This document shows, in pieces, positions 2,110 to 15,791 of a DNA stretch of 15,791 bases. Numbering within the stretch: position 1 is the first letter of the stretch; each line of letters begins with the position of its first letter. The DNA comes from a virus. Taxonomy: Duplodnaviria > Heunggongvirae > Uroviricota > Caudoviricetes. The notes beneath the pieces are model-generated. The model was given only the letters and a program-made list of their open reading frames with translations, was not told the DNA's origin and made no database searches. The DNA is taken from positions 1 to 15,791 of the IMG/VR virus record IMGVR_UViG_2737471840_000001; one strand, given 5' to 3'. The position numbers and the translations under genes are program-made.

Positions 2110-2121
2110 CTTATTATCCCC

Positions 2122-2661: not shown

Positions 2662-3125
2662 TATTTTCTCTCCATGTGAAATCTGTGGAAATTAAGACCA
2701 AGAGCACCATAAGGCGCGGCTTCTTCAAGCCTGAATCCAAGCCAGTGCAGCCATGCTTTGGCAACATGGTTTCGCTCGTCGACGTAGTTTTCCAGGTGCG
2801 GATAAACTGCCAGCATCTGCTGCAATACAGGGCGGCAGTGGCGCAGAAATGTCTTCTGATATTTTTCAATACGGCTGGTTCCGACCAGCCAGGGCGTACC
2901 ATTGCCACCGATCATTGACGCCGGAGATACGCCAAACATGGTTACCAGTTCTCCGTTCGCAAATCCTGACCAGGCCATAGTCGCAGTACGCAGACCAACA
3001 CGCAGCGCATCTTCGGTAGTCATCAGTGATACCGCATACAGTTCGTCAATATCAGCCTGACGAACATCCGGCAAAATCATCTGAAGATGCTCTTCGGTAG
3101 CGGGAATAATTCGAACATCGATCAT
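2661..3125 (-). CDS. Hypothetical virion protein (gp13 position by synteny)
   Basis: 154-aa ORF. ATG at 3125 shares one base with the stop of the 820-aa gene (TGATG), implying translational coupling. Confidence 0.5.
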   Translation of the reverse strand: MIDVRIIPATEEHLQMILPDVRQADIDELYAVSLMTTEDALRVGLRTATMAWSGFANGELVTMFGVSPASMIGGNGTPWLVGTSRIEKYQKTFLRHCRPVLQQMLAVYPHLENYVDERNHVAKAWLHWLGFRLEEAAPYGALGLNFHRFHMERK

Positions 3126-5587
3126 CAGAATCCCCCAACAGTAAGGCGAGGAATAACGGCAAGAACAGACAGCGGCAACGGGTCAAGCTGACGGATTTTT
3201 ACACGTCCGTTTTTGCCCCAGTTACTGTCCAGTTTCACTTCTACTTTTCCGGTAGCGTCATCAACAGGATCATCGTAGAACTCGAATTCACGCTGTGGAT
3301 ATTCGTACCATTTACCGCTGGGCGTAGTCGCCCAGATGCCGCGACTGGCATTCACAACCAGAGTAACTGACGGGATCACCTGTTTTTTGTCCAGCAGCGT
3401 TTCCTGTCCGTTAATGTTGATATCCAGTGTTTCGAATTCGGCAGTTATTGGCAGGCCGATGTGCACTACAGCCCCCGGAGATTCCAGCGTGACGGCACCT
3501 CCGGAAACCACTTTCTGTGGTTCCACGTTCGCATCAGAGAGAATGTTTACGGTCTGCCCTTCAAGATGAGACAGGCCTCCAAATGTCCGGCGCGCCATCT
3601 GCCAGTTCGTGGTGGCCACATTCCTGAGGGATGGCGGGACGTTCCTGTTAGCACGAACCACTACAGCGGTGTTGCTGGTTACAGAAATAATGTCGCAACG
3701 TAATTCTTTTGCGCCAGTATCAGGATCAGTTCCGGTATAAGGGAACTGTAGTTGCGCACCGACATCACTACTGGTGAAGTACGCACCACCAGAAACACTG
3801 ATTGTATATTCCGCACGGTAATCCCATTCACCAGAACCACCAGTGATGGTCATCGTTCTGTCAGACGTATTTCTTCCATCATAGCTAAGGCCAGAATCAA
3901 CAAAGAAAGCATCTTCATCGCTGGTAAATAAACGGCTGGACAGTCTCTCGATGTATCTCACTATTTGCCCGTTAACGGTTCGGTTAACGACGAAATACAC
4001 CGCATCTTCATTGCCTTCGCTGATACTGCACGTGCTTTCATATTTTCCGGTACTGGACTGTGGTGCCCATGCAAAAACCTGTTGATCACGCAAATAGGTC
4101 ATCACCAGTAATTTACCGTCATCACGAATGCAGAAGGCGCTGGAGTAAGGGACAATCGAGAAGCACCAGTCAACAATGCTGTGCTTCTGAAAAAGATGAT
4201 TGGCAAGGATGGTCAGGTCGTTCCCCTGATAGCCATCAACATCGAATGAGTAGGCCAGATCACGGACAACACTGCCTTTCTCCTGGACGAACAGAGCAAT
4301 ATTCGCCACAGCAATTGGTGGGACGTTGCTTGAGCCATTTGATCCCTGAGAGCTGAATGCAAATGATGATGGGGTTAACACTTTGTTCTGGTCACCGGTG
4401 ATGACGTACTCACCTCCGGAAGTCAGTGCCACCAGCGAACCGACATCAATCAGGTGGCGGATCTCATTAACCTGACGCCCGGCATAGGTGTAGATAATTC
4501 TGTCGTCATCCTGCGTAGGATTGCTTTTGCCAAAATCCTTATAATCCCCAGTACGGCTGGCCCAGATAGTCTGAGGGAACGCAGTCGATGCGGCGAAGTA
4601 AAGACGTTGTTGATAATAAACAACAGTGCCAGGATAACCATTAACACTGTTCCAGGCATATTTAGCCCATTTATAGCTGGCATTATCCTCGCCAACGACC
4701 TGCGAAGGGATATAGGAAATCACCTCAGCAGTTGCAGTAGTGCCATTTACAGCAGTTATACGGGCAATGCCAAAACCACTGTGCAGATACTCCCACTCAA
4801 TGCCAGTATCATCATCACCCGATCCACCCCAGCCATCCCATGATGTGCCTTCTGTATGCGAAGGGCGCAAAGTGCCTGTTTTGCCTGCTGTAACGGCGCG
4901 ATAGTAGTTACTGTCTGCACGGCGAATATCGCCAATCGACGTACTCTTACTGGTTTCCCATACCGGCACTGAATCCACTGCTGGCTGTTCCAGATAGAAC
5001 AATTTGCCTACCTGCTCCGCGCCAAAAATAGAGGCGCTTGCCGTTAACGTAATTGTCCCGGTGCTGGCGCTGGCATAAACCGTCACTGACTCGTCAATAT
5101 TGATATCTTCAAATGGCCCGTTCTTCGTTATCACATCAACCAGTTGCCAGTTGTCATGAGCATATCGGCGCAACTCTTTCGGCGGGTATGCCGGGTGAAC
5201 CAGCGTAAGCACGTCGGCGCTTTGCGTGAATTTAATTCGGAACAGATCGGCTTCAGTATATGGCGTGGCAATTTCATAAATAACATTGCTACTGTTCAGC
5301 ACCAACGCACCATCTTTGATAACGCGCATGTACTGGTGTCCGAACTCCAGAGCATAGGTCTGAACCGTCGAGAACTGGAACGGGATCAGGCGGCATTTCC
5401 GATTTGGGTATTTGGCGGCACCGACAAAACGCGTACCAGGTCGATTCTCAACGCCGCCATACTGCCGCACGATAAAGTTATCGCACTTGCGCAATGCCAC
5501 CTGGTACTTCGCCATGTCAATACGCCCGTACAACGACGGTCCAATCTCACCACCGGCAAAGCTGGGTTGGATCCAACTGATAGCCAT
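3125..5587 (-). CDS. Tail tubular protein B-like (T7 gp12-like nozzle protein)
   Basis: 820-aa ORF. Size and N-terminus (MAISWIQPSFAGGEIGPSLYGRID) resemble T7 gp12 as I recall it. Directly follows the gp11-like gene with a TGATG overlap. Confidence 0.6.
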   Translation of the reverse strand: MAISWIQPSFAGGEIGPSLYGRIDMAKYQVALRKCDNFIVRQYGGVENRPGTRFVGAAKYPNRKCRLIPFQFSTVQTYALEFGHQYMRVIKDGALVLNSSNVIYEIATPYTEADLFRIKFTQSADVLTLVHPAYPPKELRRYAHDNWQLVDVITKNGPFEDINIDESVTVYASASTGTITLTASASIFGAEQVGKLFYLEQPAVDSVPVWETSKSTSIGDIRRADSNYYRAVTAGKTGTLRPSHTEGTSWDGWGGSGDDDTGIEWEYLHSGFGIARITAVNGTTATAEVISYIPSQVVGEDNASYKWAKYAWNSVNGYPGTVVYYQQRLYFAASTAFPQTIWASRTGDYKDFGKSNPTQDDDRIIYTYAGRQVNEIRHLIDVGSLVALTSGGEYVITGDQNKVLTPSSFAFSSQGSNGSSNVPPIAVANIALFVQEKGSVVRDLAYSFDVDGYQGNDLTILANHLFQKHSIVDWCFSIVPYSSAFCIRDDGKLLVMTYLRDQQVFAWAPQSSTGKYESTCSISEGNEDAVYFVVNRTVNGQIVRYIERLSSRLFTSDEDAFFVDSGLSYDGRNTSDRTMTITGGSGEWDYRAEYTISVSGGAYFTSSDVGAQLQFPYTGTDPDTGAKELRCDIISVTSNTAVVVRANRNVPPSLRNVATTNWQMARRTFGGLSHLEGQTVNILSDANVEPQKVVSGGAVTLESPGAVVHIGLPITAEFETLDININGQETLLDKKQVIPSVTLVVNASRGIWATTPSGKWYEYPQREFEFYDDPVDDATGKVEVKLDSNWGKNGRVKIRQLDPLPLSVLAVIPRLTVGGF

Positions 5588-6192
5588 CAGGACAACCTCG
5601 CAATGGTAAACTCGTCAACCGGAGGCTGTGGTTCCTGTGATTCATTCTGGCTATGCGAGCCAGCACTAAGAATCACGCGATTGTACATATTGAGGGCAAA
5701 CGTACCGAGGTCTGCATTCCCAGTCAGCGCCATGTTAATAGCTGCCGCAAGACGCCAGGCCAACGCCTCCATAAAAATGGCATCAAACATGTTCACATCT
5801 GTAACGCGAGAGACATACTTGAGCCATGCCTGAGGCTGGTCTGTGTAGATCAACTTTCCTGTTCCGTTGGTGTCTGCACCAACTTCGTACTGAACGCGCA
5901 TTGCTGCTGTTGGATTGCGTACACCAGGAAGCATAATTTCAGTAATGCGCAGACAATCTGACGGGTACTGGTACGCATATTCCCAGTCAGGCGGTGGATT
6001 GCTCGTATCTGCAAGCGCCACGCGTTTGGTAGCAAAGTTCCAGTCAAAATCAGAAAGCACAGCATCACGACAGGCCTCAAAGTGCAGCGAACATTCCCCC
6101 GCTTCCTTGCTGGCTTCCGTCAGGCTGTTAATGCTGCGGCTGTTGCCAATATTGGACAGCGCACGATTACAGATCTCTACTACAGAGGCCAT
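5587..6192 (-). CDS. Tail tubular protein A-like (T7 gp11-like gatekeeper)
   Basis: About 201 aa from ATG at 6192 (the track start at 6195 is GTG). N-terminus MASVVEICNRALSNIGNSRSINSLTE resembles gp11-type proteins by recollection. Overlaps neighbouring genes at both ends. Confidence 0.5.
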   Translation of the reverse strand: MASVVEICNRALSNIGNSRSINSLTEASKEAGECSLHFEACRDAVLSDFDWNFATKRVALADTSNPPPDWEYAYQYPSDCLRITEIMLPGVRNPTAAMRVQYEVGADTNGTGKLIYTDQPQAWLKYVSRVTDVNMFDAIFMEALAWRLAAAINMALTGNADLGTFALNMYNRVILSAGSHSQNESQEPQPPVDEFTIARLS

Positions 6193-6515
6193 CACTCACC
6201 TCCGTTACCGTACAGAGTTTCAGCCGCTGATTTTTCTACATCCCCGGAAACAGGAGCGATCGCCATATCAGTGATCTGCAGATCGGCGCTGCGATTAACG
6301 CCATCGTTAGTTTCTCTGGCAGACAGGCCTCGAATAACAGCCTTTGCAGTTATCATCACTTCTGTTCCGACGCCCTGAGGTTGCGCCTTCAGCTTATTCA
6401 ATGTGTCGTTATTAAGAGTGATGCACAGCCCCCACGGGTATTCATCGCGAGTTCTGGTTTCTCCGCTCTCATCCTGGTAGCTGTCAGTGCCGGTTTTGAG
6501 GTTTACGAGTTCCAT
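6192..6515 (-). CDS. Hypothetical small virion protein (possible head-tail adaptor)
   Basis: 107 aa from ATG at 6515 (MELVNLKTG...), with AGGAG RBS 8 nt upstream. The track start at 6521 is GTG. Confidence 0.5.
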   Translation of the reverse strand: MELVNLKTGTDSYQDESGETRTRDEYPWGLCITLNNDTLNKLKAQPQGVGTEVMITAKAVIRGLSARETNDGVNRSADLQITDMAIAPVSGDVEKSAAETLYGNGGE

Positions 6516-6525
6516 ATACACTCCT

Positions 6526-6549
6526 GCAATAAAGGGGCCGAAGCCCCTT
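6526..6549 (-). terminator. Intrinsic terminator-like hairpin between head and tail gene blocks
   Basis: Minus strand reads GGGGC-TTCG-GCCCC followed by TTTATTG; plus-strand coordinates 6534-6547 for the stem-loop. Lies in the 45-nt gap between the genes ending at 6566 and starting at 6515. Confidence 0.55.
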
Positions 6550-6565
6550 GTCTGATCCGCGAGGC

Positions 6566-6901
6566 TTACACGCCCAGTTCTTTACGCTTATCTGCGATCT
6601 TCTCGCGGAGCGTTTCGGCTTTGGCGTTATGGTGTGGCTTCTCGTTAAAGAGCAATTCGTACTCTTCACGGAGCTTATCCAGTTCACCATCATCTGACAT
6701 ATCGTTGATGATTTTGGTGCTGGTTGCTGCCATTGACACCTTTCCTGCTACCTTTGCTTTTGCCTGTCTGGCTGCATCGTTAACAGGTTCCAGTGCGCTA
6801 CCAGGCTCACCTTCGTATTCGATTTCTACCCCCTCCGGCCACAGAGTGTTATGGATATGAGAGAGGCGCAGAACGCGGTATCTTGGTTTCTCACCTGACA
6901 T
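6566..6901 (-). CDS. Hypothetical small virion protein
   Basis: About 111 aa from ATG at 6901 (MSGEKPRYRVL...), AGGTGA RBS. The track start at 6910 is GTG. Confidence 0.45.
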   Translation of the reverse strand: MSGEKPRYRVLRLSHIHNTLWPEGVEIEYEGEPGSALEPVNDAARQAKAKVAGKVSMAATSTKIINDMSDDGELDKLREEYELLFNEKPHHNAKAETLREKIADKRKELGV

Positions 6902-6911
6902 CAATATCACC

Positions 6912-7349
6912 TTAACCAGTTACTTTTGAGCGGATCGGATACGGCGTATTGGCATCAACATCAAGACTGATACCAGCAGTGAATTTGCCGGCCGTTAGTG
7001 GGCCAGTTGCGACGGAGTAGTTAACACGCAGATATCGCTGAACACCAGCAGGCACCTTTGCAGAAACAACTCGCTTACCTGCTGTCAGGGTGGCCTTTGC
7101 CAGTGCGCCACTATCATAAATAGTGGACCATGAGCTGTTATTCTCACTCGTCTGCAACTGGATGTTTACAGTTGCCTCACCACTTGCCGTGGCGGCTTCG
7201 TTAACCAGCACCCAAAACTCAAGCGGATAACCCACGCCGATATCGCGACGGTTTCCATCAATTGGACCGAGATCGATTACGTCAGTAGAAGCCGCGGTAT
7301 TCGTAACCGCCTGAGCTTCGGAGAACATCAACAGTTTGTCGGTGATCAT
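6912..7349 (-). CDS. Hypothetical structural protein immediately downstream of major capsid (possible decoration protein)
   Basis: 145-aa ORF, ATG at 7349 with GGAGAAAG RBS. Gly/Thr/Ala-rich composition typical of structural proteins. Assignment by position only. Confidence 0.5.
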   Translation of the reverse strand: MITDKLLMFSEAQAVTNTAASTDVIDLGPIDGNRRDIGVGYPLEFWVLVNEAATASGEATVNIQLQTSENNSSWSTIYDSGALAKATLTAGKRVVSAKVPAGVQRYLRVNYSVATGPLTAGKFTAGISLDVDANTPYPIRSKVTG

Positions 7350-7364
7350 CTTCTTTCTCCATTA

Positions 7365-7384
7365 GTGGGTCTGTTACGACCCAC
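7365..7384 (-). other. Stable stem-loop in the capsid-downstream intergenic region
   Basis: GTGGGTC-N6-GACCCAC perfect 7-bp inverted repeat at 7365-7371 and 7378-7384. No U-tract follows on either strand. Confidence 0.35.
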
Positions 7385-7400
7385 AGGTTAATAACAGGCG

Positions 7401-8393
7401 TTACACCACGCGGGCTTCTGTTTCCAGAAGCGCATCAGTTTCACGGATTGGTACACCACGGAATGAAGTCCACCACTCGCCTTCAGTCTCTTTTACGCTG
7501 ATAGCCAGAGATGTTTTCTCCAGAGACTGCAGATCAAGAGCCTGGCCTACAGTGCGGTTCATGTAGAACACCGGGCGGCCCATGCCACGGTTTGGAATGC
7601 GATGCAGTGCTTTAACCATCAACTTCGCAATATTTGCGGCAGAGGAAGGTTCTGAAAGATTGCTGACATCGATGTTTGCAATGCGAACAACATAACGCCA
7701 GTCACGCAGAGCAAGTCCGTTGTCCCATTTGTAATGGGTGCGATAGCCTTCGTACTTGCCGCCATTAGCATCTTCCAGTGTCACCTGGCCTTTATCTTCC
7801 ATCTGGATGCCAGCCTTCTGCCCTTTCGGGAAGATGCCATGCACGGTGTTTTCGCCCCACACCACTAACCAGATGGAGGTGTTATCTGTACCCGTGCCAC
7901 CAGCATCAATGATGTTCTGAGCATTACCCGCAGACAGGCTGGAATAGCGGGAGGACAGTCCCATAAACTGCTGAGGGTTAACGCTGGAATCACCATAAAA
8001 CAGCGTCTGCGCCATCTGCTGATTCATCGCTTCAATAAATGCGCGGTCTTCAGACAGGCGGAATTCGGCGGTATTGCCGTTCAGATCAGCCAGTGACTTA
8101 TCGACTTCAGCATAGGTTTCCAGCATGCCAACGGAATCGGTTACCTGCACTGTGGTTGATTTGCTTGGCTGTACGCCATAGTTCAGCAAACGCCAGGTAG
8201 CTGAAGGTAAACCAGAACGAATGGTGGTTCGGTGTCCGGTAGGAAGGTTCCCTTCGACAAAAGGCATATCCTGAAGGATCGGGTTAGTTTGACCGAGAAG
8301 CTCGATAATCTTATCGACTTTCCCGTTTGGATCGACGCGCTTACCCCAGTCAGCCAGCGTTAGCGCAGTTAAGCCTTTAACAGCCATTGTCAT
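7401..8393 (-). CDS. Major capsid protein
   Basis: 330-aa ORF, ATG at 8393 with strong RBS (AAGAGAGGAA). Sits directly after the scaffold gene in canonical head-gene order. Confidence 0.7.
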   Translation of the reverse strand: MTMAVKGLTALTLADWGKRVDPNGKVDKIIELLGQTNPILQDMPFVEGNLPTGHRTTIRSGLPSATWRLLNYGVQPSKSTTVQVTDSVGMLETYAEVDKSLADLNGNTAEFRLSEDRAFIEAMNQQMAQTLFYGDSSVNPQQFMGLSSRYSSLSAGNAQNIIDAGGTGTDNTSIWLVVWGENTVHGIFPKGQKAGIQMEDKGQVTLEDANGGKYEGYRTHYKWDNGLALRDWRYVVRIANIDVSNLSEPSSAANIAKLMVKALHRIPNRGMGRPVFYMNRTVGQALDLQSLEKTSLAISVKETEGEWWTSFRGVPIRETDALLETEARVV

Positions 8394-8401
8394 TTCCTCT
8401 C

Positions 8402-9097
8402 TTATTTGCCATAGAGCACTTCGGCCGCACTACGCTGGCCTTCATTACCACCGGTGACCATGCCATCTTCAGACATCGCCTTTCCGATTTTCACGAACGT
8501 TTTGACCAGATCAGGGTGATTACCCAGCCCGGTGGTGTTCAGATATTCTTTGAGTTCAGGTGTCCCGAACTGATCAAGCGCACGCTGTGCGACGCTAAGG
8601 TTAGAAATCAACTTGTCGCCACCGATTTCTTTGTCAGCTTTTACATCCGCAGCCCACTGCTCGGTTGTTTTCTGCCAGGCTTCTGCCTGGCGCTGCTGAA
8701 CACCTGCCAGAATCTTCGGATAAGCATCAACCAGCTTTTGCGCTTGCTCGTTGGTCAGGTTAAGTTCTCGCGCCACCGGCTCGAATTCCTTCAACGCTTC
8801 TGTATCAAGCTCTACGCCTTCGGCAGCCTGAAACTCGTACTTCTCAGGCGCACCCTCTGGTTTATCGCCGCCCTTTTTTTCATCCTGCTTATCGTTTTCA
8901 GGCTTTTTGTCATCAGCAGGTTTATCGCCATCAGCAACAGGTTGTGGCTTATCGCCTTCCTGTTGTGATGGATCAACAACTGGAGCAGGGTTATCACCTG
9001 CAGGCGCTGACGGTTCTGACGCAGCCGGAGCTGCTCCACCATCGACTGGTTGCTCATTGCAAAGACGGCGATACAGCAAACGCTCAAATAAATTCAT
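8402..9097 (-). CDS. Scaffolding (capsid assembly) protein
   Basis: About 231 aa from ATG at 9097 (MNLFERLL...), AGGAG RBS. Low-complexity Pro/Asp/Lys/Glu-rich acidic region (PQPVADGDKPADDKKPENDKQDEKKGGDKPEGAPE). Lies between portal and capsid. Confidence 0.6.
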   Translation of the reverse strand: MNLFERLLYRRLCNEQPVDGGAAPAASEPSAPAGDNPAPVVDPSQQEGDKPQPVADGDKPADDKKPENDKQDEKKGGDKPEGAPEKYEFQAAEGVELDTEALKEFEPVARELNLTNEQAQKLVDAYPKILAGVQQRQAEAWQKTTEQWAADVKADKEIGGDKLISNLSVAQRALDQFGTPELKEYLNTTGLGNHPDLVKTFVKIGKAMSEDGMVTGGNEGQRSAAEVLYGK

Positions 9098-9099
9098 GA

Positions 9100-9396
9100 T
9101 CACTCCTGTTCACTGGCCTCTTTGGCCATCTTCAAATACTGTTCAGGGCAATGCGCCATAACGCGCTGAAACAGTTCCAGCGCCAGATTGCGTTGCCCCT
9201 CATTAAATGCCATTGCCATAGCGTCCATCGGTGAGATAGCGGAAAACACCCGGCCTTTCTCCAGCACAGACCAGACAACGCGACGCCCCTGTTCACTGCT
9301 CATGACAAAGCGAATGTCATCAATTTCACGCTGTGCCATGTCACGTTGCTTACGGGCGTTTTCTTCTTTCAGTTGATCATCTTCGTAATCTGTCAT
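9100..9396 (-). CDS. Hypothetical protein between portal and scaffold
   Basis: 98-aa ORF, ATG at 9396 overlapping the portal stop (ATGA). Acidic, helical-looking composition. Confidence 0.5.
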   Translation of the reverse strand: MTDYEDDQLKEENARKQRDMAQREIDDIRFVMSSEQGRRVVWSVLEKGRVFSAISPMDAMAMAFNEGQRNLALELFQRVMAHCPEQYLKMAKEASEQE

Positions 9397-11072
9397 TGTG
9401 ATTGCCCACCCTGACCACTAACTGCATTCGCCATAGCTGACAAAACACTCGGATCCGAAGTTTTAGCTTCGCTTAGCGTCTTGGCACCCTGTGCCGCCGC
9501 CATCCCCATCGCCATCATTTGTTGTTGCTGTTGTTGCTGTGCCCGTTGCTGGCGAGCCTGCTCAACCTGTTCCTGCGGAACAATGACGGTTGGAGACACT
9601 CCGGACATATCAGCGAATGCATCGATCGCCTGATCAACGTTGAGTTTGTCGAGAGCTTCTGGTTTCGCTTGCGCAAGTTGACCAATGAAGTTAACCGTGG
9701 ACGCCAGACTGGACAGGCCGATAGACTTCTGCGCCTGAGCCATGACAGAAATGTATTCGACCTTCAGGGGCATACCTTCCATCGCGTCAGGCGGTGGCGG
9801 CAGCATGTTTTTACGCACCATCATCGAGAAAGCGCGGTCAATGAGAGGATTAAGACATTCGTCGTTCAGACGCTCCAGAACCGGCCCCAACATCAGAAGT
9901 TTTTCTTCTTTCATTTCGATCACCGCTTCAACAGGCATCGAGCGGGTATTGATGTTCTGCAACATCATGAACAGATCGACAAAGTAGGCGCTGTTAATGA
10001 TTTGGCGGGTGTCCTGAATGTCTGCTACCAGATCTGCTGTACTGGGGTTAACCAGATAAGCAGGCCTGAAACCATCCTGACCAGTAATCTGATCGATATA
10101 CGTGATGTCGCCAGGAAGAAGGGAGGCGCGCTGATTCTTGAGGGAAGTCGGAGCAACCATCGGCGGATTGGTGGCTTTATCAATCAACTGCGACTTGCGC
10201 TTCTGGAGAAGCTGCAGTGCCTTAACAGGTCCAAGCGCCAGCATACCCGGGCATGATGATCCATAAACATCTTCGCCGTTAACTTCCCAGCGCGGAGCCA
10301 TAATTGGAAACTCATCGAATCCGGACTCACGCAACAACTTGTCGTTATCGCCACCAACCTCGTAATAAACCGATTTGAATGGCTTGTTCTTGCTATCCAG
10401 CTTCGATGTATCGCGGTCAATGTTCGGGTAAACCGAATGCATCACTTCAATCCACTTCTCGTAGGTGCCGCTTTCCCACATGCTTTTTACGGATTCGCTG
10501 ACGTTATTTAGCCCGAACTCCTGAACAAGCTGACGAACAGTCATAGAGAACTTGCGAAAACAGGTGTCCACACTGCCACGAGGTGAGTTAGCCAGGTAGT
10601 AACTGCCTATCGGGAATGGCATTGTGCGAATGATGTCCTCGTCATCCTCCAGCACTGCCATTGCACCAGTGCTGTATGTGCCGAGGCTTCCGTATAACTG
10701 CGGCAGAGACTGATAGAGATTCGACTTATTGAACATATCGTTCATGCGGTTCTGCACCGCCTCAAGCCACAACTTAACAGGGCCATAATCCATCATTTCA
10801 GGATCTGGCGTAGCCAGGCGAAACCACGGACGCGCGGGGCTTGTGATGCCTGACATCATGCCGCTGGCGAGAGTGCGCGCCGCCATAGTCCCGGTCGAAT
10901 CAATAATGCGTGTATTGCGTCGATCGTTACGGTTGACCTCTGAAGTCAGAAAGCGGGAACCACGCGGGTTGATGTAATCACTCAACTCGCGCCAGTGCGG
11001 CTCGAACGACTGACGCTCGCTTTCAAGTTGTGCGAACTGTTTGTTCAATCGCTCTTTAGTTGTTTCCGCCAT
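9393..11072 (-). CDS. Portal (head-to-tail connector) protein, T7 gp8-like
   Basis: 559-aa ORF immediately downstream of the terminase region. Gln/Ala/Met-rich C-terminal tail (QQRAQQQQQQQMMAMGMAAAQG...) resembles T7-type connectors as I recall them. ATG at 11072 with GGAG RBS. Confidence 0.75.
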   Translation of the reverse strand: MAETTKERLNKQFAQLESERQSFEPHWRELSDYINPRGSRFLTSEVNRNDRRNTRIIDSTGTMAARTLASGMMSGITSPARPWFRLATPDPEMMDYGPVKLWLEAVQNRMNDMFNKSNLYQSLPQLYGSLGTYSTGAMAVLEDDEDIIRTMPFPIGSYYLANSPRGSVDTCFRKFSMTVRQLVQEFGLNNVSESVKSMWESGTYEKWIEVMHSVYPNIDRDTSKLDSKNKPFKSVYYEVGGDNDKLLRESGFDEFPIMAPRWEVNGEDVYGSSCPGMLALGPVKALQLLQKRKSQLIDKATNPPMVAPTSLKNQRASLLPGDITYIDQITGQDGFRPAYLVNPSTADLVADIQDTRQIINSAYFVDLFMMLQNINTRSMPVEAVIEMKEEKLLMLGPVLERLNDECLNPLIDRAFSMMVRKNMLPPPPDAMEGMPLKVEYISVMAQAQKSIGLSSLASTVNFIGQLAQAKPEALDKLNVDQAIDAFADMSGVSPTVIVPQEQVEQARQQRAQQQQQQQMMAMGMAAAQGAKTLSEAKTSDPSVLSAMANAVSGQGGQSQ

Positions 11073-11086
11073 TTCAATGACTCCGG

Positions 11087-11293
11087 TTACTGACCAAGCA
11101 GCGTTTTACCGCTGGTATTAGCGGTTGATGTGTCGCCCTGAGAACCGGTAAGCAGCGTAGAACTACGACCAGCAGCAGCGCGACGGCGACGAGTTTCTTC
11201 GTCGCGGGCATCAACAACGGCGGCATCCTGCTCCTGTGGTGCTGCCTGAACTTCTGGTGTTGCAGGCACTGACGGTGAGCTACCCATGCACAT
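11087..11293 (-). CDS. Candidate small low-complexity protein upstream of portal
   Basis: 68-aa ORF, ATG at 11293, preceded by CGGAGTCATTGA, the same 12-nt RBS context found in front of the portal ATG. Composition is Ala/Arg/Thr/Ser-rich; coding status uncertain. Confidence 0.35.
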   Translation of the reverse strand: MCMGSSPSVPATPEVQAAPQEQDAAVVDARDEETRRRRAAAGRSSTLLTGSQGDTSTANTSGKTLLGQ

Positions 11294-11315
11294 ATCAATG
11301 ACTCCGTACGCAATT

Positions 11316-11388
11316 AAATTATTACCAATTTAACCACATATGATTTATTTATCGTAGATAGTTGACATTTAACGCACAAATTATTACC
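11316..11388. repeat. Two copies of AAATTATTACC in the AT-rich intergenic region, flanking a TTGACA hexamer
   Basis: Exact 11-bp direct repeat at 11316-11326 and 11378-11388. TTGACA at 11363-11368. Inverted repeat TTACC-N5-GGTAA at 11384-11398. Confidence 0.6.
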
Positions 11389-11439
11389 TTTCAGGTAACC
11401 AAAGAGTTCATTCCGGTTACTAACCTGACTGGCTTGTCG

Positions 11440-11721
11440 TTAAATTGAACAGGTGGAGTGAGCTTTTATTTTGAGCAGTACGGCGTATGGCACATGCGCC
11501 GATAGCGGTCTGGATACGTTTAAGGGGCACCCTCCCTTGCTCGGGCAAACGAACCAGGTAGCCGGAATGTGCAAGTCGAGCGGTTTTATTCCGCGCACGG
11601 GGATTCACCATCCCGGCGATTCGGTGTGACGCCTCGGAAGAGACGAGGGTACAACGATGAGAGCATTTATGGAGCCGCGACAAAGTGTGGCGCACTTAAC
11701 AGGCTAAGTGCTCTCAGCGTT
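11440..11721 (+). ncRNA. Candidate structured non-coding RNA or long leader upstream of tRNA-Arg
   Basis: About 280 nt of GC-rich sequence with no credible ORF on either strand. Local hairpins: TTGC-tcgg-GCAA (11537-11548), GCGG-N7-CCGC (11580-11594), GGGAT-N5-ATCCC (11600-11614), CCTCG-N7-CGAGG (11632-11648). Boundaries and strand are not determined. Confidence 0.3.
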
Positions 11722-11798
11722 GTGGCATTAGCTCAGTTGGACAGAGCAACCGCCTTCTAAGCGGTTGGTCGCAGGTTCGAATCCTGCATGCCACGCCA
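11722..11798 (+). tRNA. tRNA-Arg (anticodon UCU), argU-like, with encoded CCA
   Basis: Hand-folded cloverleaf: acceptor GTGGCAT/ATGCCAC, D-arm GCTC-AGTTGGACA-GAGC, anticodon stem ACCGC/GCGGT with loop CTTCTAA, T-arm GCAGG-TTCGAAT-CCTGC, discriminator G, CCA. Body closely resembles enterobacterial argU from memory. Confidence 0.9.
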
Positions 11799-11841
11799 GA
11801 ATCACGCCTAAGGACCGTGATGCCAGAAGTTCCAGGTGCTT

Positions 11842-11884
11842 GGCGGTGATGGTTTCCCTTGAAGGACTATCACCGCCATTTTTA
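11842..11884 (+). terminator. Intrinsic terminator downstream of tRNA-Arg
   Basis: GGCGGTGAT (11842-11850) pairs with ATCACCGCC (11869-11877), internal CCTT/AAGG pairing, followed by a run of five T (11879-11883). Confidence 0.55.
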
Positions 11885-11962
11885 CAGCAGGACGCCATTG
11901 CGATGACTTCATGCTGTAAACCAGTACAGCCACGGAAGGCATAACTCATTGCTTCCAGTTCT

Positions 11963-11986
11963 CCCGGTTCGTCCGGGCATTTTTTT
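11963..11986 (+). terminator. Intrinsic terminator-like hairpin just upstream of the 110-aa ORF RBS
   Basis: CCCGG-TTCGT-CCGGG (11963-11977), then CA and seven T (11980-11986). No U-tract on the opposite strand. Confidence 0.5.
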
Positions 11987-11998
11987 AAGGTGAAAATC

Positions 11999-12331
11999 AT
12001 GAAAGAGAAGACTGCAGCTGAGCGCTATGCCGCAGCTATCAATGCCGCGATGGCGATTGTAAACCTGCGTGAAGAGATTAAAGATCTCCTTGCAATTATC
12101 CATAACAACCTGACATGTACAGAGTTGCTTGGCGGTCAGTACAACGGTGAGGCGGTGAAGGAGGCATTTAAAAATGCCGAGGTAGGAATAATTCCAGCAA
12201 ACTATGTCAAGGCTGAATGTGTGCTCCTAAAGGCACGAGTGAGTCTGCATGAAGATCCTGGTAATCTCGGTCGAACTGCAATGCGTTACGTGATAGACGA
12301 GTCGAATGCCAAACACAATCTACCGAAATAA
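11999..12331 (+). CDS. Orphan hypothetical protein (110 aa), moron-like, opposite to the morphogenesis operon
   Basis: ATG at 11999 with AAGGTG RBS 6 nt upstream (the track start at 11990 is GTG). Product MKEKTAAERYAAAINAAMAIVNLREEIKDLL... has no recognised motif. Uses rare ATA, CTA and CGA codons and looks lower in GC than neighbours. Bracketed by terminators. Confidence 0.6.
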   Translation: MKEKTAAERYAAAINAAMAIVNLREEIKDLLAIIHNNLTCTELLGGQYNGEAVKEAFKNAEVGIIPANYVKAECVLLKARVSLHEDPGNLGRTAMRYVIDESNAKHNLPK

Positions 12332-12334
12332 CAC

Positions 12335-12348
12335 CGTGACATGTCACA
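12335..12348. repeat. CGTGACATGTCACA, copy 1 (perfect 12-bp palindrome GTGACATGTCAC inside)
   Basis: Exact 14-bp match to 14600-14613. Lies 4 nt after the stop of the 110-aa ORF and before the terminator at 12352-12380. Confidence 0.8.
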
Positions 12349-12351
12349 AAC

Positions 12352-12380
12352 AGCCAGCCTATGAGCTGGCTTTGTTTTAT
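12352..12380 (+). terminator. Intrinsic terminator after the 110-aa ORF
   Basis: AGCCAGC (12352-12358) pairs with GCTGGCT (12365-12371), loop CTATGA, then TTGTTTTAT. The opposite strand has an A-tract before the hairpin, so it is unidirectional for plus-strand transcripts. Confidence 0.6.
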
Positions 12381-12421
12381 CCTCACCAGAGGATATCAAC
12401 GACATTATCCCCACCAGCGGA

Positions 12422-13897
12422 TTAAGCATAGGGATCGTAATCTGTGATGGCCTTGCCTTGCTGGTTCTGCTGACCGGGAATTCGCAGACGCTTCGACACA
12501 GGGAACGCAAACGTCAGCAGTAGCGCATCGCCTTTACCAGGAGAACGCCCAAGTCGCTCTTTGATATCTTCCTTCGGTTCGATAACGATTTTACCGTCCA
12601 CTCGAACTTTGTACTCTGCTGCCGACAGGTCGTCCGCTGTTTCCTGGTCATCCAGCATGCCGCCCAGCCTCAGCCATGTCTTGCATGAATTGAACATCTC
12701 CCCACGCTTGTTGAGCATCTGCGGGTCAGTAGACGCGCCACCGAACGGAACAAGTTGCCATGTACGACCCCATCCGTCACCGATTGACTTCAGACCGGTT
12801 CCGTAACCGAAGTCGATGAACACCGCGTCAGCCTGATACTGGTCTTCAAAGTCAGCGATACGCTTCGCCATAATCAGATCGTCGGTAGTCTTGTTGCCAG
12901 TCCACAGCACCTTACTGTGTAGCCCCTGCCGCAGGTATATCACCGCGTCATCAACGCCTGAATATGCCGGGTCAACACCGATTATCACCGGAGCATGCGC
13001 CACCTGCGCAGCGGTTACCACCCGTTTCATTGCCTCATCAGTAAGACCGGTAGGGATAAACTGCAATTCAGATGCATCAGGGAATATGCCGCGCACACGG
13101 ATTTTAACGAAGTCGCTGTCTTCCCCGTAGTCATCAACCCATTTCTGCAACTGCTGTTTGTTAGTGCCTTCCACCGTTCGGCTGTCAATCTGCGCAGTTT
13201 TCCAGCGGTGTTTATATTTGCGGAAACATTCACGGAATCGCCCGGTATTACGCGTCGGGTTTCCGAACGCCACCCAGATAATCTCAGTGTCTTCGTCCGT
13301 TAGCGCACCTTCGGCAACTTCCCACACCAGATCCGCAATGTTCGACGCTTCATCGAATACCACGATGATGCGTTTGCGCTCGTTGTGTAGTCCGGCGAAT
13401 GCCTCAGTGTTGTGCTCAGACCAGGGGATTGCGTCAGCTCGCCACCGCTTGTCGTGCCCAGGATCATTGCTGTACATCGCGGTAGCGGTACAGGTAAACC
13501 AGTCTTTCGTGATAGCAAGGTTCGACCACTTGATAATTTCCGGCCAGGTCTTCGTTCGTAGCTGGTTGTCGGTGTTGGCGGTCACCACGACCTTACAATC
13601 CTCGCAAGTGGACATGCCCCAGTTGATCAGCATTGAGATGAATGCGGATTTACCAATACCGTGACCAGAAGCACGTGCCAGCATAAGCGGCTGATATCGC
13701 GTCTCTGGATTCTGCAGGTGATCACGTATCTCTCGGAACGCATCGGCCTGCCACTGACGTGGACCGGTGGCATGTGCCAGTTCAGTACCCTCTTCCCCCC
13801 ACGGGAACGCATAGAGGGCATAGCCAAGCGGATCGTGAGTGAACCCTGCAATATCCTCGATTAACTGCTCTTCAGGAGATAACGCTGTATCTGTCAC
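12422..13897 (-). CDS. Terminase large subunit
   Basis: 491-aa ORF with a P-loop/Walker A motif (ASGHGIGKS) near the N-terminus and an acidic nuclease-type segment (VDPAYSGVDDAVIY) in the C-terminal half. GTG start at 13897 overlapping the terminase small stop (GTGA). Confidence 0.85.
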   Translation of the reverse strand: MTDTALSPEEQLIEDIAGFTHDPLGYALYAFPWGEEGTELAHATGPRQWQADAFREIRDHLQNPETRYQPLMLARASGHGIGKSAFISMLINWGMSTCEDCKVVVTANTDNQLRTKTWPEIIKWSNLAITKDWFTCTATAMYSNDPGHDKRWRADAIPWSEHNTEAFAGLHNERKRIIVVFDEASNIADLVWEVAEGALTDEDTEIIWVAFGNPTRNTGRFRECFRKYKHRWKTAQIDSRTVEGTNKQQLQKWVDDYGEDSDFVKIRVRGIFPDASELQFIPTGLTDEAMKRVVTAAQVAHAPVIIGVDPAYSGVDDAVIYLRQGLHSKVLWTGNKTTDDLIMAKRIADFEDQYQADAVFIDFGYGTGLKSIGDGWGRTWQLVPFGGASTDPQMLNKRGEMFNSCKTWLRLGGMLDDQETADDLSAAEYKVRVDGKIVIEPKEDIKERLGRSPGKGDALLLTFAFPVSKRLRIPGQQNQQGKAITDYDPYA

Positions 13898-14490
13898 TGA
13901 TTGCCATCCTGACGTTCTTTCAGTCTCTTCCTGGCTGCCGCTATGCGATCAGCAATTGTCACATTCACATTAACATCCAGGCGTTCTTTGAATGCGTTGA
14001 CGTCGACGTGCTTACCAATCAGTTCGAGGTTCTTCACCTTGTCAGGCCATTTAATTTTTTTGAGGATTGTCTCTATCGAATCCTCGTTCATGTTCATGAT
14101 GGTCGATGACAGATCAAAGCCACTAAGCGTAGTGCGCCAGATTTTCGGCCACTCGCGGATTGGCTTAAGACTCCCATCGTCGTTGAGGATATCAATCACG
14201 TCCATCTGGTCGATCTCCACCAGGCGCATGAGAACGTAATCAGCACTGACGCGCATTCGTTTGTTGCGCTCCTCCATCAACTCGGCAATCCGTTTTTGAA
14301 TGCGTTCATCACGCATCATGACACTGGCTTTAACTGCCGCTGTATTTGGGGAGAATCCTGCGTTAATCGCTGCCTGAGTCTGGTTTTCAGGCGTTTTGAT
14401 GTATGACTGGCAATAAGCCTCCTGCATTGCTGTTAGTGGCTTAAATTGCGTTGATTTGCGTTTATAGGTTTTAGGTTCAGCAGGCATCAT
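13894..14490 (-). CDS. Terminase small subunit (Terminase_2-like)
   Basis: Conserved N-terminal signature LTAMQEAYCQSYIKTPENQTQAAINAGFS fits the Terminase_2 family pattern as I recall it. Start moved from the track's 14568 to the internal ATG at 14490 (MMPAEPK...) because a terminator hairpin and tandem repeats occupy 14498-14561. Confidence 0.7.
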   Translation of the reverse strand: MMPAEPKTYKRKSTQFKPLTAMQEAYCQSYIKTPENQTQAAINAGFSPNTAAVKASVMMRDERIQKRIAELMEERNKRMRVSADYVLMRLVEIDQMDVIDILNDDGSLKPIREWPKIWRTTLSGFDLSSTIMNMNEDSIETILKKIKWPDKVKNLELIGKHVDVNAFKERLDVNVNVTIADRIAAARKRLKERQDGNQ

Positions 14491-14497
14491 AACCACC

Positions 14498-14529
14498 GTG
14501 GTAATAGTTACCGTTGTGGTAATAGTACC
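14498..14529. repeat. Tandem imperfect repeat GTGGTAATAGTTACC / GTGGTAATAGTACC, each internally palindromic
   Basis: Copies at 14498-14512 and 14516-14529, separated by GTT. Located between the terminator hairpin and the terminase small start. A possible extended -10 element (TGGTACTAT on the minus strand, plus coordinates 14522-14530) overlaps copy 2. Confidence 0.6.
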
Positions 14530-14530
14530 A

Positions 14531-14561
14531 TGCAAAATAAAGCCGCCATAGTTGGCGGCAG
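14531..14561 (-). terminator. Intrinsic terminator upstream of the terminase genes
   Basis: Minus strand reads CTGCCGCC-AACTAT-GGCGGC followed by TTTATTTTG; plus-strand stem at 14542-14547 and 14554-14559. Confidence 0.5.
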
Positions 14562-14599
14562 TATTCAAAACCCATCAAATTCATCATGCATAATCTACT

Positions 14600-14613
14600 C
14601 GTGACATGTCACA
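14600..14613. repeat. CGTGACATGTCACA, copy 2
   Basis: Exact 14-bp match to 12335-12348. Overlaps the stop codon of the 115-aa minus-strand ORF and lies just upstream, in the minus-strand sense, of the terminator at 14531-14561. Confidence 0.8.
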
Positions 14614-14956
14614 CTATTAATTTCGTTTCATGCCAGCCTTTAGTCACCCAGCATTGCGAGTCACCATTACACGGGCATGAATTCACAGGAACTCTCTCGC
14701 CGCACTTACCGCAACGTTTTCTGCTGATCGATTTTATACGCCCGCGCACGCGTGCATCATCCTGGCGGATCAGTAACGCTATATACTCACCAAATTCGTA
14801 AGGCGCACGCCCGGGGCGACGTGTGGCACAGTTACGCTCCAGCATTTCAATTTCCTGAGCATCAAGCACAATCTCCAGCTTACGTACACCGGATTCAGCT
14901 TGTCTGGCTCTCTGAGCGGCTTTGCGTTCTGCGGGGGATTTAGCCACGAATCGCAC
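14609..14956 (-). CDS. Hypothetical protein with basic N-terminus and C-terminal cysteine cluster (possible zinc-ribbon or nucleic-acid-binding protein)
   Basis: 115-aa ORF with no ATG; GTG at 14956 or 14947, the latter with GGAG 8 nt upstream. C-terminus CGKCGERVPVNSCPCNGDSQC. Function unknown. Confidence 0.45.
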   Translation of the reverse strand: MRFVAKSPAERKAAQRARQAESGVRKLEIVLDAQEIEMLERNCATRRPGRAPYEFGEYIALLIRQDDARVRGRIKSISRKRCGKCGERVPVNSCPCNGDSQCWVTKGWHETKLIV

Positions 14957-15062
14957 TCCACGCCAGATTGATTAATGACTCCCAGGCAATATAAACCCGG
15001 ATACCAGCAGCCAGGCCGAAACCAATCACCATGGCATAAAGCAGAGCGTTGCACTTGTTCAT
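14940..15062 (-). CDS. Candidate 40-aa single-pass membrane peptide
   Basis: ATG at 15062 overlaps the stop of the DUF551 gene. Product MNKCNALLYAMVIGFGLAAGIRVYIAWESLINLAWSAIRG has one hydrophobic helix. The 65-aa track ORF would overlap the upstream gene by 76 nt, so the internal start is preferred. Confidence 0.35.
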   Translation of the reverse strand: MNKCNALLYAMVIGFGLAAGIRVYIAWESLINLAWSAIRG

Positions 15063-15775
15063 CACTTCACCTCCTGCGGCGGTTCTGGTAGCGGCATCCA
15101 GTGTGACGGTTTCCACGACGCACCAGGAATTATCCACCCATCATTAGCGTCAGGATGCCCGGGGATGTAAGTAGCCCATTTCATTCGCCAGTCACCTTTC
15201 CTGTCAAACTCCACGGCAACAAGAACGGCTGTTTTGGTATTCGGCATTCGCTCACTACAGCTTATCCAACCATCCGGAGTTGCCGGAGAGTTGCCCGATA
15301 GCTGGTTCAACTTGTAAGTTTGGCTTACAGGTTCGGCACCATGAAGCATGGCGTCGCTCCGCTCTATGCCATCCAGCGCGATTCGCAGTGCCTGAATTGT
15401 GGTAGAGCTATCGTTTGGGGCTATTCCATATCGCTCGAATACAGCTAAATGGTTGCGCATAATCTCAGGCGTAAGCTCTTTGTAAGCATAAGCAAGAGGC
15501 TCTGATGCATTATCCGGCACAACCGACGCAGGCGCGGCAGCATAAACAGGAATAACGTCCGCTTGCTCTTTATTGCTTTCATCCGTTAAAGACCAGAATA
15601 ATTTCCCGGCCGGATGTTTGAAAATATAAGCAACTGGATCTGCTTCCAGCGATGCCAGCGCAATTCGTGCCAGTTCTTCCGCCTCTTCTGCTGGCAGTAC
15701 AACGTTGCTACCAGGTCCGTATGTTTCGCGCCACTGCTTGATTGTCAGTAGTCGCTCTTTGGTAATAGTGATCAT
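15062..15775 (-). CDS. DUF551-domain phage protein
   Basis: 237-aa ORF, ATG at 15775 with AAGGAA RBS. C-terminus ...DGWIIPGASWKPSHWMPLPEPP matches the DUF551 signature common in enterobacterial lambdoid prophages, from memory. Confidence 0.6.
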   Translation of the reverse strand: MITITKERLLTIKQWRETYGPGSNVVLPAEEAEELARIALASLEADPVAYIFKHPAGKLFWSLTDESNKEQADVIPVYAAAPASVVPDNASEPLAYAYKELTPEIMRNHLAVFERYGIAPNDSSTTIQALRIALDGIERSDAMLHGAEPVSQTYKLNQLSGNSPATPDGWISCSERMPNTKTAVLVAVEFDRKGDWRMKWATYIPGHPDANDGWIIPGASWKPSHWMPLPEPPQEVK

Positions 15776-15791
15776 GCCGCGTTTCCTTCTT

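Follow-up and report, generated by a model that had tools for sequence, protein, structure and literature searches.

The DNA analysed here, called the window throughout, is a stretch of 15,791 nucleotides from a tailed virus (positions 1 to 15,791 of IMG/VR record IMGVR_UViG_2737471840_000001). A plus-strand cassette of about 1 kb interrupts its minus-strand morphogenesis operon between the terminase genes and the portal gene. This cassette contains a structured RNA core of about 170 nucleotides which, judged from comparative alignments, represents a phage RNA family that is well supported, very widespread and hitherto undescribed. Both the structure of the RNA and its genomic context can be stated with high confidence. 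Its function is a more tentative matter. A cis-acting role resembling that of the put RNAs, in which the RNA would modify host RNA polymerase and cause antitermination, is our leading candidate, although we would stop short of calling it probable. The cassette itself is best explained as an autonomous early transcription unit placed in a conserved accessory slot.

Architecture and covariation of the RNA

A first-pass annotation of the window, made from the sequence alone, had described a GC-rich structured non-coding stretch in the cassette. This description holds, with a G+C content of 0.55–0.61 at 11450–11650 and no consistent reading frame in relatives. What it missed is the nature of the stretch, which is a conserved and widespread element of the cassette. 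The RNA has the following parts.

11475–11655, plus strand: structured RNA core, about 170 nucleotides (covariance model R1, 146.8 bits, E = 1e-48)
11481–11501, plus strand: hairpin P1
11509–11513 with 11554–11558, plus strand: helix P2, which encloses a variable hairpin
11557–11575, plus strand: near-invariant 19-mer, GGTAGCCGGAATGTGCAAG
11600–11603 with 11611–11614, plus strand: helix P4, with the loop YUCACCA
11606–11609 (CACC) with 11623–11626 (GGTG), plus strand: pseudoknot of 4 bp between the P4 loop and the following strand
11632–11636 with 11644–11648, plus strand: helix P5, with the loop GAAGAGA
11652–11722, plus strand: 3' domain, an 18-position helix (11652–11669 with 11705–11722) with a variable tip, from the minimum-free-energy fold

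The four helices and the pseudoknot were read from alignments of 37 representatives. When these were aligned with MAFFT, 96.5% of the cells were paired and 13 pairs had changed on both sides; none of 500 shuffles reached the observed value, and sliding the partners against each other gave at most 6 such pairs. A model-based alignment of 87 distinct sequences gave a similar result, with 96.4% of the cells paired and 14 pairs (205 cells) changed on both sides, again reached by none of 500 shuffles. The pseudoknot changes from CACC/GGUG to AACC/GGUU in 9 sequences, which may descend from one event. The G-U pairs are compatible with the plus strand only. A long-range pairing of GCACAU with AUGUGC is possible as well; it is invariant and hence gives no covariation signal. 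Folding of the single sequence was uninformative (z = -1.9 for the plus strand and -2.4 for the minus strand).

The helix of the 3' domain contains one A·G mismatch and one G·U pair, and its last pair involves G11722, with which the adjoining tRNA begins. Compensatory variants occur on both of its strands, with 25 distinct sequence pairs. The domain is optional, being absent from the P1/P7-type copy and from some others. A motif, AGUGCKCUYYCAG..GUGUG, forms the 3' strand of a long hairpin and recurs upstream of the core, in the leader of Uetakevirus copies, and downstream of it, in the 3' domain; its places in the window are 11447–11480 and 11705–11725. The possibility that its GCUCUUU serves as a single-stranded boxA was ruled out, as the stretch is base-paired with compensatory changes. 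Similarly, TGGCAC in P1 was considered as the -24 element of a sigma-54 promoter and was ruled out by the alignment, in which the -12 position varies and the stem covaries.

At the gathering scores of Rfam 15, the RNA at 11475–11722 has no match, and the tRNA is the only family found. Permissive searches returned noise only (E ≥ 3 in the window and E ≥ 0.35 in the copy of phage cdtI). The exact 19-mer was not found printed in the literature searched, and the titles and abstracts of the phiV10 and epsilon15 literature contained nothing that looked relevant.

That the stretch is instead a degraded or unannotated protein gene, such as the minus-strand open reading frame (ORF) of 91 amino acids at 11420–11695, is hardly credible: ORFs of 52–91 amino acids overlap the RNA, and several records (mEp460, Ayreon and TL-2011b) place a "hypothetical protein" over the homologous stretch, but core lengths fall in all residues modulo 3 (31/38/21), even the best frame runs through the core uninterrupted in just 53 of the 90 copies, the variable sites have no 3-base periodicity (25/19/17), there is no Pfam match, and the variation is explained by compensatory base changes. 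The coding sequences drawn across the RNA in public records (gp37 of mEp460 and the hypothetical proteins of Ayreon and TL-2011b) look spurious.

Distribution of the RNA family

The window belongs to a phiV10/epsilon15-like podovirus of the genus Uetakevirus, as indicated by a search with a 2-kb query around the cassette. This query matched Escherichia phages with 96–98.5% identity over about 83% of its length, among them vB_EcoP_ZX5 (ZX5 below), HEMP4, phiV10, the O157 typing phages 9 and 10, and TL-2011b. The phage is probably a prophage, and an E. coli chromosome holds an identical copy of the RNA stretch of the window.

The RNA is not confined to this genus. In a BLAST search with 11294–11721, the segment 11480–11721 was about 82% identical to unrelated lambdoid phages, namely cdtI, mEp460, Ayreon, 2H10, Stx2c phages and some Stx2a phages. 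A second search found the first ~165 nucleotides of the core in P7, P1-like phages, D6, SJ46 and RCS47 as well. Three unrelated temperate lineages thus carry the RNA with about 80% sequence identity: Uetakevirus, lambdoids of the cdtI/SfV type that lack N, and P1/P7-like phage-plasmids. The 19-mer used as a query retrieved at least 120 viral contigs. An independent anchor, the 5' hairpin, retrieved largely the same loci, and 123 of 130 contained the exact 19-mer, which argues that its conservation is not an artefact of the search.

Among 5426 complete E. coli genomes the RNA is present in 1840 (34%), with 554 places on plasmids, and tRNA is the only annotation found under it. A pattern search of the GTDB species representatives gave 51 hits, of which the covariance model confirmed 23; the unconfirmed hits equal the number expected by chance. 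Twenty-two of the confirmed hits are in Enterobacterales, with the genera Escherichia, Klebsiella, Citrobacter, Enterobacter, Kosakonia, Phytobacter, Kluyvera, Buttiauxella, Erwinia and others. The remaining one, with a high RNA score, lies on a 1.7-kb contig of a metagenome-assembled genome labelled "Bacillota" (locus L192, 1153–1316). A high score was also obtained for BUCT708, deposited as a Stenotrophomonas phage (locus L148, 2938–3096). Both copies probably reflect a mis-assigned host or contamination. A large, pseudoknotted and very conserved RNA has thus gone without annotation, although one complete E. coli genome in three contains it and Stx2-converting phages, classic P1/P7-type phage-plasmids and O157 typing phages carry it.

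Two unusual copies were observed. One viral contig (L027) contains two cores on the minus strand, at 3993–4158 and 4800–4963, about 800 nucleotides apart and downstream of cI; two counter-oriented ORFs of 163 and 166 amino acids accompany them, one between the copies and one after the second. Phage epsilon15 keeps only the first ~60 nucleotides of the RNA, comprising P1 and part of P2 (2619–2727 of the epsilon15 record; 3108–3216 of locus L004). It is a natural deletion mutant, lacking the rest of the core, the tRNA and the first terminator (T1) of the cassette while keeping the second (T2) and the gene gp50.

Genomic position of the RNA

Every copy that was checked lies on an early transcript under repressor control, either established or predicted. 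In cdtI the order is the cI gene, the cI terminator, a promoter TTGACA-N16-CATAAT (11 of 12 consensus matches) and the RNA, which begins about 45 nucleotides downstream. The promoter carries an operator, ATGTACC...ATACAT, which is the same as that of the cI-cro intergenic region and identifies it as pL/oL. In most loci outside Uetakevirus the upstream gene codes for a CI-type repressor (HTH_3 plus Peptidase_S24). In these loci the RNA is followed by genes of the ordinary early-left kind (DUF2303/YfdQ, a ParB-like protein, a phosphatase, Ea22-like and xis). The common downstream proteins include no member of the N antiterminator family, and the records of cdtI, mEp460 and Stx2a_WGPS2 annotate none, although divergent N analogues are possible. 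Between the RNA and the first early-left gene of cdtI there is a strong terminator with a 10-bp stem, and no promoter-like site was found. The ~80 nucleotides that follow the RNA in cdtI were considered as a degenerate tRNA and discarded, since ARAGORN made no call and the fold was no better than that of shuffled sequences (z = 0.46).

In P7 the core is located in the ban operon, which the record describes as controlled by a C1 operator, 13 nucleotides after a tRNA annotated as tRNA-Ile (anticodon CAU) and about 90 nucleotides before ban. Overall, tRNAs adjoin the RNA in 21 of 87 non-redundant loci. A tRNA-Arg lies directly downstream in 14 of these and a CAU tRNA directly upstream in 6; the latter are P1-type loci in which the tRNA ends 12–14 nucleotides before the core.

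The cassette occupies a fixed slot with changing contents

The same region was compared in nine relatives, comprising eight phages (phiV10, ZX5, SPN9TCW, epsilon15, Klebsiella phage ST512-KPC3phi13.3, Tyrion, BUCT554 and PAT1) and one Klebsiella oxytoca prophage. A counter-oriented plus-strand cassette is situated between the large terminase and gp3/portal in all nine. In the window its elements in order are a control region with a palindrome, a leader, the RNA of ~250 nucleotides, tRNA-Arg(UCU), two terminators, a cargo ORF and a shared terminator.

The first-pass annotation had placed the cassette between terminase and portal. Its position within the minus-strand operon stands, with the refinement that a gene of 68 codons separates it from the portal gene. 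The same annotation took terminase and portal to be normally contiguous and regarded the cassette as a recently acquired moron. The alignment with related genomes that it proposed speaks against both ideas, in that terminase and portal are not adjacent in any Uetakevirus relative examined, and close as well as distant relatives carry the cassette at the same place, an observation it had itself named as counting against a recent gain. Two other parts of its description fared better. On the plus strand the cassette forms a unit apart, with terminators and a conserved control region of its own, and its contents are mosaic and accessory: the ORF is swapped, the tRNA is variably present, and the RNA module is common to lambdoid and P1-like phages.

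A recent moron that broke a contiguous operon in this phage is consequently quite improbable. It would fit the lower G+C content of the control region and of the ORF, the exchange of the cargo ORF between near-identical phages, and the contiguity of terminase and portal in HK022, HK639 and cdtI. However, a counter-oriented cassette fills the slot, in the same orientation and with the same control region, in every Uetakevirus relative examined, which argues against a recent insertion. The slot appears from these comparisons to be ancestral to the genus, with only the contents turning over, and the cassette as such is an ordinary feature of Uetakevirus.

Turnover of the cargo is extensive. Among 26 non-redundant Uetakevirus-type loci there are about 20 unrelated ORF clusters in the slot, some of which are probably spurious calls. 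Examples are a protein with a Tad2-like domain (E = 4e-26), an HNH endonuclease and a coiled-coil membrane protein. Between the window and its closest relatives the flanks are ~98% identical, yet the cargo is unlike: phrog_27507 in the window and Phage_gp49_66 in ZX5 and phiV10. The Tad2-like anti-Thoeris domain (PF11195) sits in the slot of Klebsiella phage ST512-KPC3phi13.3, a position it shares with the ORF of the window, which itself has no Pfam match. This gives some footing to the idea of a counter-defence cassette, and the terminase-portal gap of Uetakevirus is a cargo slot in which anti-defence genes can be sought.

Morons are autonomous promoter-gene-terminator units in the late operons of phages such as HK97 and HK022. 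The cassette resembles them in its own control region and terminators, its independent orientation and its variable cargo, which differs among the similar phages represented by the window, ZX5 and phiV10. As to a promoter and terminator of its own, the terminators are clear, and TTGACA and an operator are conserved; the -10 element is weak, and a consensus scan found no promoter. Insertion between genes that are adjacent in related phages was not seen, the slot being occupied in all Uetakevirus relatives examined. The cassette also differs from morons in that the slot is fixed across the genus and the constant part is an RNA rather than a protein gene. In addition, it appears to be repressor-controlled, which would keep it silent in a lysogen; classic morons, by contrast, are active in the prophage.

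Control region, tRNA, terminators and cargo ORF

The remaining elements of the cassette are the following.

11294–11399, no strand assigned: AT-rich divergent control region (G+C content 0.30) with a repeat, TTGACA and a palindrome
11400–11474, plus strand: leader, from the presumed start site to the RNA core, with a hairpin at 11413–11432 and a conserved GTCGTTAAAT motif
11722–11798, plus strand: tRNA-Arg, anticodon UCU, with an encoded CCA end (ARAGORN; Rfam RF00005)
11841–11883, plus strand: terminator T1, a 15-bp stem followed by TTTTT
11963–11987, plus strand: terminator T2, a 5-bp stem of G+C pairs only, followed by a T7 run
11999–12331, plus strand: cargo ORF of 110 amino acids, with an ATG start and AAGGTG 7 nucleotides upstream
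12352–12378, no strand assigned: terminator T3, an A-rich run, a stem and a T-rich run, at the same place as a terminator annotated in phiV10

The AT-rich repeat region that had been noted before is evident in the G+C content of 0.30 at 11300–11399, compared with 0.5–0.6 in the flanks. An 11-nucleotide direct repeat, AAATTATTACC, occurs at 11316–11326 and 11378–11388. A perfect -35 hexamer, TTGACA, is present on the plus strand at 11362–11367, and an operator-like palindrome, TTACCTTTCAGGTAA, at 11384–11398 overlaps the -10/+1 region of the predicted plus-strand promoter. The control region is near-invariant, and both TTGACA and the palindrome are kept in all aligned Uetakevirus relatives. A consensus promoter scan of the window gave no full promoter in the control region, the -10 element being weak (TACCTT, with a spacing of 17 nucleotides); from the conserved TTGACA and operator we infer a cassette promoter on the plus strand.

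The palindrome conforms to the pattern TTACC-N5-GGTAA, which occurs 3 times in the window (0.16 expected) and 15 times in epsilon15 (0.7 expected), where three sites are located on each side of the repressor gene. The homologous site is annotated in the epsilon15 record as a predicted repressor operator, beside a site for integration host factor. Since a palindrome of repressor type covers the predicted -10 and start site and recurs around the epsilon15 repressor gene, the cassette looks like a repressor-controlled unit. Other sites of this pattern in epsilon15 precede terS, the tail-fibre gene, the lysis genes and int, and the prophage repressor may bind many promoters, late ones included. 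In the stretch homologous to the leader, the epsilon15 record annotates a predicted RNase III site.

The tRNA-Arg(UCU) reported earlier is intact, with an ARAGORN call and 73.3 bits against Rfam RF00005 (gathering score 29). The same gene is already annotated in SPN9TCW, SPC32H and the O157 typing phages 9 and 10. Among the relatives, phiV10, ZX5, SPN9TCW and ST512-KPC3phi13.3 have it, whereas epsilon15, Tyrion, BUCT554, PAT1 and the K. oxytoca prophage lack it, so that the module can do without the tRNA. P7 likewise has tRNAs on the early operon that carries the RNA. In the genes of the window AGA accounts for 3.8 per 1000 codons and is concentrated in a few of them. A codon-supply role is plausible but modest, and the tRNA might conceivably serve in counter-defence. 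An ORF of 115 amino acids for a transcriptional regulator (phrog_536; 14609–14956, minus strand), located immediately upstream of the terminase genes, uses AGA for 4 of its 16 arginine codons, and its translation could depend on the phage tRNA. The coding sequences drawn antisense across the tRNA in public records (phiV10p04 and QTH80046 of ZX5) look spurious; the places noted for these and for the coding sequences across the RNA are 11728–12000 (minus strand) in the window, 3328–3579 in locus L001, 2328–2579 in L003 and 3443–3811 in L207.

Plus-strand hairpins followed by T runs were found at four sites, compared with 1.5 ± 1.2 in shuffled sequences. Three of them, at 11841–11878, 11963–11977 and 12352–12371, bear out the rho-independent-type terminators of the first-pass annotation, and a weak fourth is at 11413–11432. 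T1 is kept in Uetakevirus loci about 220 nucleotides after the core, with a ΔG near -20 kcal/mol. T2 ends about 12 nucleotides before the start of the cargo ORF and overlaps its ribosome-binding site; epsilon15 retains it ahead of gp50. T3 is probably bidirectional and would end the cassette and the convergent terminase operon alike.

The orphan ORF of 110 amino acids was likewise found where it had been described, with a good ribosome-binding site. Its sole PHROG match is phrog_27507 (E = 3.5e-75), a family of unknown function. It has no Pfam match, and the Pfam and PHROG searches placed it in no described anti-defence family; it has no similarity to the cargo proteins of phiV10 or ZX5. The family is rare, with 15 protein clusters that are 61–98% identical among 5.8 billion sequences, enterobacterial wherever a host is named, and it fills the same slot in K. 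oxytoca prophages. A structure model of the protein was unusable (predicted local distance difference test score 48).

Candidate functions of the RNA

The RNA heads the pL transcript in N-less lambdoids, the place where putL sits in HK022 and HK639, and this is one reason why a put-like role in cis is favoured. The put RNAs lie just after pL in N-less lambdoids and bind RNA polymerase directly, and those of HK022 and HK639 are the only established RNAs that make E. coli RNA polymerase termination-resistant without a phage protein (PMC9378689). By analogy, the RNA described here would fold co-transcriptionally and act in cis on the transcribing host RNA polymerase, as the HK022 and HK639 put RNAs do, and the modified polymerase would resist pausing and termination. 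In lambdoids the pL transcript would reach the early-left genes without N protein. In the window, transcription would pass T1 and T2 to the cargo ORF, and the tRNA would be a co-transcribed add-on that is cut out by RNase P and supplies AGA decoding.

Several observations are consistent with this arrangement. Both T1 and T2 lie between the RNA and the ORF of the window, and the promoter scan found no promoter-like site between them. Among Uetakevirus-type loci, same-strand terminators precede the cargo ORF in 15 of 21, compared with 2 of 21 for the opposite strand. A host partner for the RNA is likely, since three lineages carry it without an evident shared phage partner nearby and all 22 named hosts are Enterobacterales.

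In kind, the RNA is closest to the put RNAs. Both are encoded in cis just downstream of a repressor-controlled pL in N-less lambdoids, and in both a host rather than a phage partner is implied. The HK639 record annotates a single putL-like RNA and none at pR, and cdtI likewise has one left-side copy. Membership in the put family fails on homology, and unlike the put RNAs used for comparison, this family also occurs outside lambdoids, in Uetakevirus and in P1-like phages. A put-type RNA brings about readthrough of terminators through its contact with the zinc-binding domain of the RNA polymerase β' subunit; terminators do lie downstream of the RNA described here, with a clear enrichment in Uetakevirus-type loci only. 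The HK639 record also annotates an "M3-like RNA" just after the cII-like gene (locus L200, 37910–37969).

The RNA was also compared with the nutL site and N leader of lambda, whose map position at the start of the pL transcript we take to be the same. The long flanking helices presumably recall the RNase III site of the lambda N leader, and the GCUCUUU...GUGUG motif recalls what we take to be boxA and boxC. The nut system differs in that no N-family protein accompanies this RNA and the boxA-like stretch is base-paired and covarying, and the RNA core presumably has no counterpart in nut sites.

A number of findings weigh against a put-like antiterminator. The model R1 finds no match in HK022 or HK639 up to E = 10, and the architecture is unlike that of put, with a core of ~170 nucleotides, four helices, a pseudoknot and an optional 3' hairpin as opposed to ~70 nucleotides and two stems (PMC9378689). 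There is one copy per genome, and R1 detects no putR-like second copy in cdtI, phiV10 or the window. For lambdoid-type loci the terminator count does not discriminate between strands (21 of 36 on the same strand and 23 of 36 on the opposite one). The P7 copy lies 2.4 kb into its operon, directly before ban, with no terminator between. The Uetakevirus unit has a single cargo gene of ~350 nucleotides downstream, and a processive antiterminator would risk passing T3 into the terminase genes in antisense. T1 has a long stem of 15 bp, and long terminator stems are reported to resist processive antitermination (PMC10325885); T1 may for this reason be the true end of an RNA-tRNA unit. Furthermore, T2 and gp50 persist in epsilon15 although most of the RNA is gone there, and the adjoining of tRNAs to the RNA in two lineages is also compatible with a processed stable RNA.

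Such a stable RNA acting in trans is a possible alternative, which we consider clearly less likely than antitermination. RNase P would cut the RNA free at the tRNA, perhaps together with RNase III acting on the long flanking helices, and the RNA would then bind a conserved host factor as a decoy, sponge or inhibitor; its target might belong to a defence system, or be RNA polymerase, an RNase or a translation factor. The cassette would then be an early host-takeover or counter-defence unit made up of RNA, tRNA and accessory protein. The close packing of tRNAs in two independent lineages fits well: in 14 loci tRNA-Arg starts where the 3' helix has its last pair, and the CAU tRNA adjoins the core in the 6 P1-type loci. 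The core is flanked by helices of 16–18 bp with compensatory changes, the leader homologue in epsilon15 carries the predicted RNase III site, and the strong, long-stemmed T1 follows right behind the tRNA. The near-invariant 19-mer suggests one conserved partner, the RNA would be among the first products upon derepression, and the Tad2-like domain occurs as slot cargo in the Klebsiella relative. On the other hand, the P7 copy runs into the translation start of ban with no terminator, the place at the head of pL in N-less lambdoids suits a cis role better, and an RNA acting in trans would not need an early-operon position in all three lineages. In its most specific form, which is more doubtful still, the RNA would be a new class acting in trans on a conserved enterobacterial machine (defence, RNA processing or translation), made as an early product in three derepressed lineages and freed by tRNA-processing enzymes, and the cassette would be a counter-defence unit.

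It is improbable that the RNA is only a processing or stability element, that is, a 5' domain that shields the mRNA or tRNA precursor from RNase E or exonucleases, or that organises the cuts of RNase III and RNase P, with no effect on polymerase and no target in trans. Polycistronic early transcripts invariably carry the RNA inside them or at their 5' end, long helices border it, and the epsilon15 record predicts RNase III sites near it, all of which would suit a stabiliser. Such an element needs no pseudoknot, no exact stretch of 19 nucleotides at nearly every locus and no ~80% identity across lineages, however, and this excess indicates specific recognition.

A riboswitch-like sensor, in which a metabolite or signal would decide passage of the downstream terminators, is very unlikely: a pseudoknotted, highly conserved core in a 5' leader with terminators downstream in most loci is what such a sensor would look like, but the core overlaps with no expression platform, the first terminator follows at anything from ~70 to more than 600 nucleotides, at times beyond a tRNA, P7 has no terminator, and there is no match to an Rfam riboswitch.

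If the RNA is an antiterminator, it would explain early-left expression in N-less cdtI/SfV-type prophages, Stx2c phages included, and would be a third RNA solution, unrelated to put, that lends itself to direct tests with E. coli RNA polymerase. Action in trans would make it a novel type of RNA by which phages take over their host. Under both readings, phiV10-type, P1-type and Stx phages offer a defined element for deletion.

Flanking genes

The cassette is bordered by genes of the minus-strand operon, as follows.

9393–11072, minus strand: portal (Head-tail_con, E = 1.6e-187)
11087–11293, minus strand: gp3-like ORF of 68 amino acids (phrog_831); homologues are annotated in phiV10, epsilon15 and SPN9TCW
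12422–13897, minus strand: large terminase; homologues are annotated as such in phiV10, ZX5 and epsilon15
13894–14568, minus strand: small terminase (Terminase_2)

The large terminase gene flanks the cassette on one side. On the other side it is flanked by the gp3-like ORF, which is the first gene of the head operon. Two TTACC-N5-GGTAA palindromes, at 14490–14504 and 14508–14522, fall within the 5' end of the small-terminase ORF as called, and the true start of this gene probably lies downstream of both.

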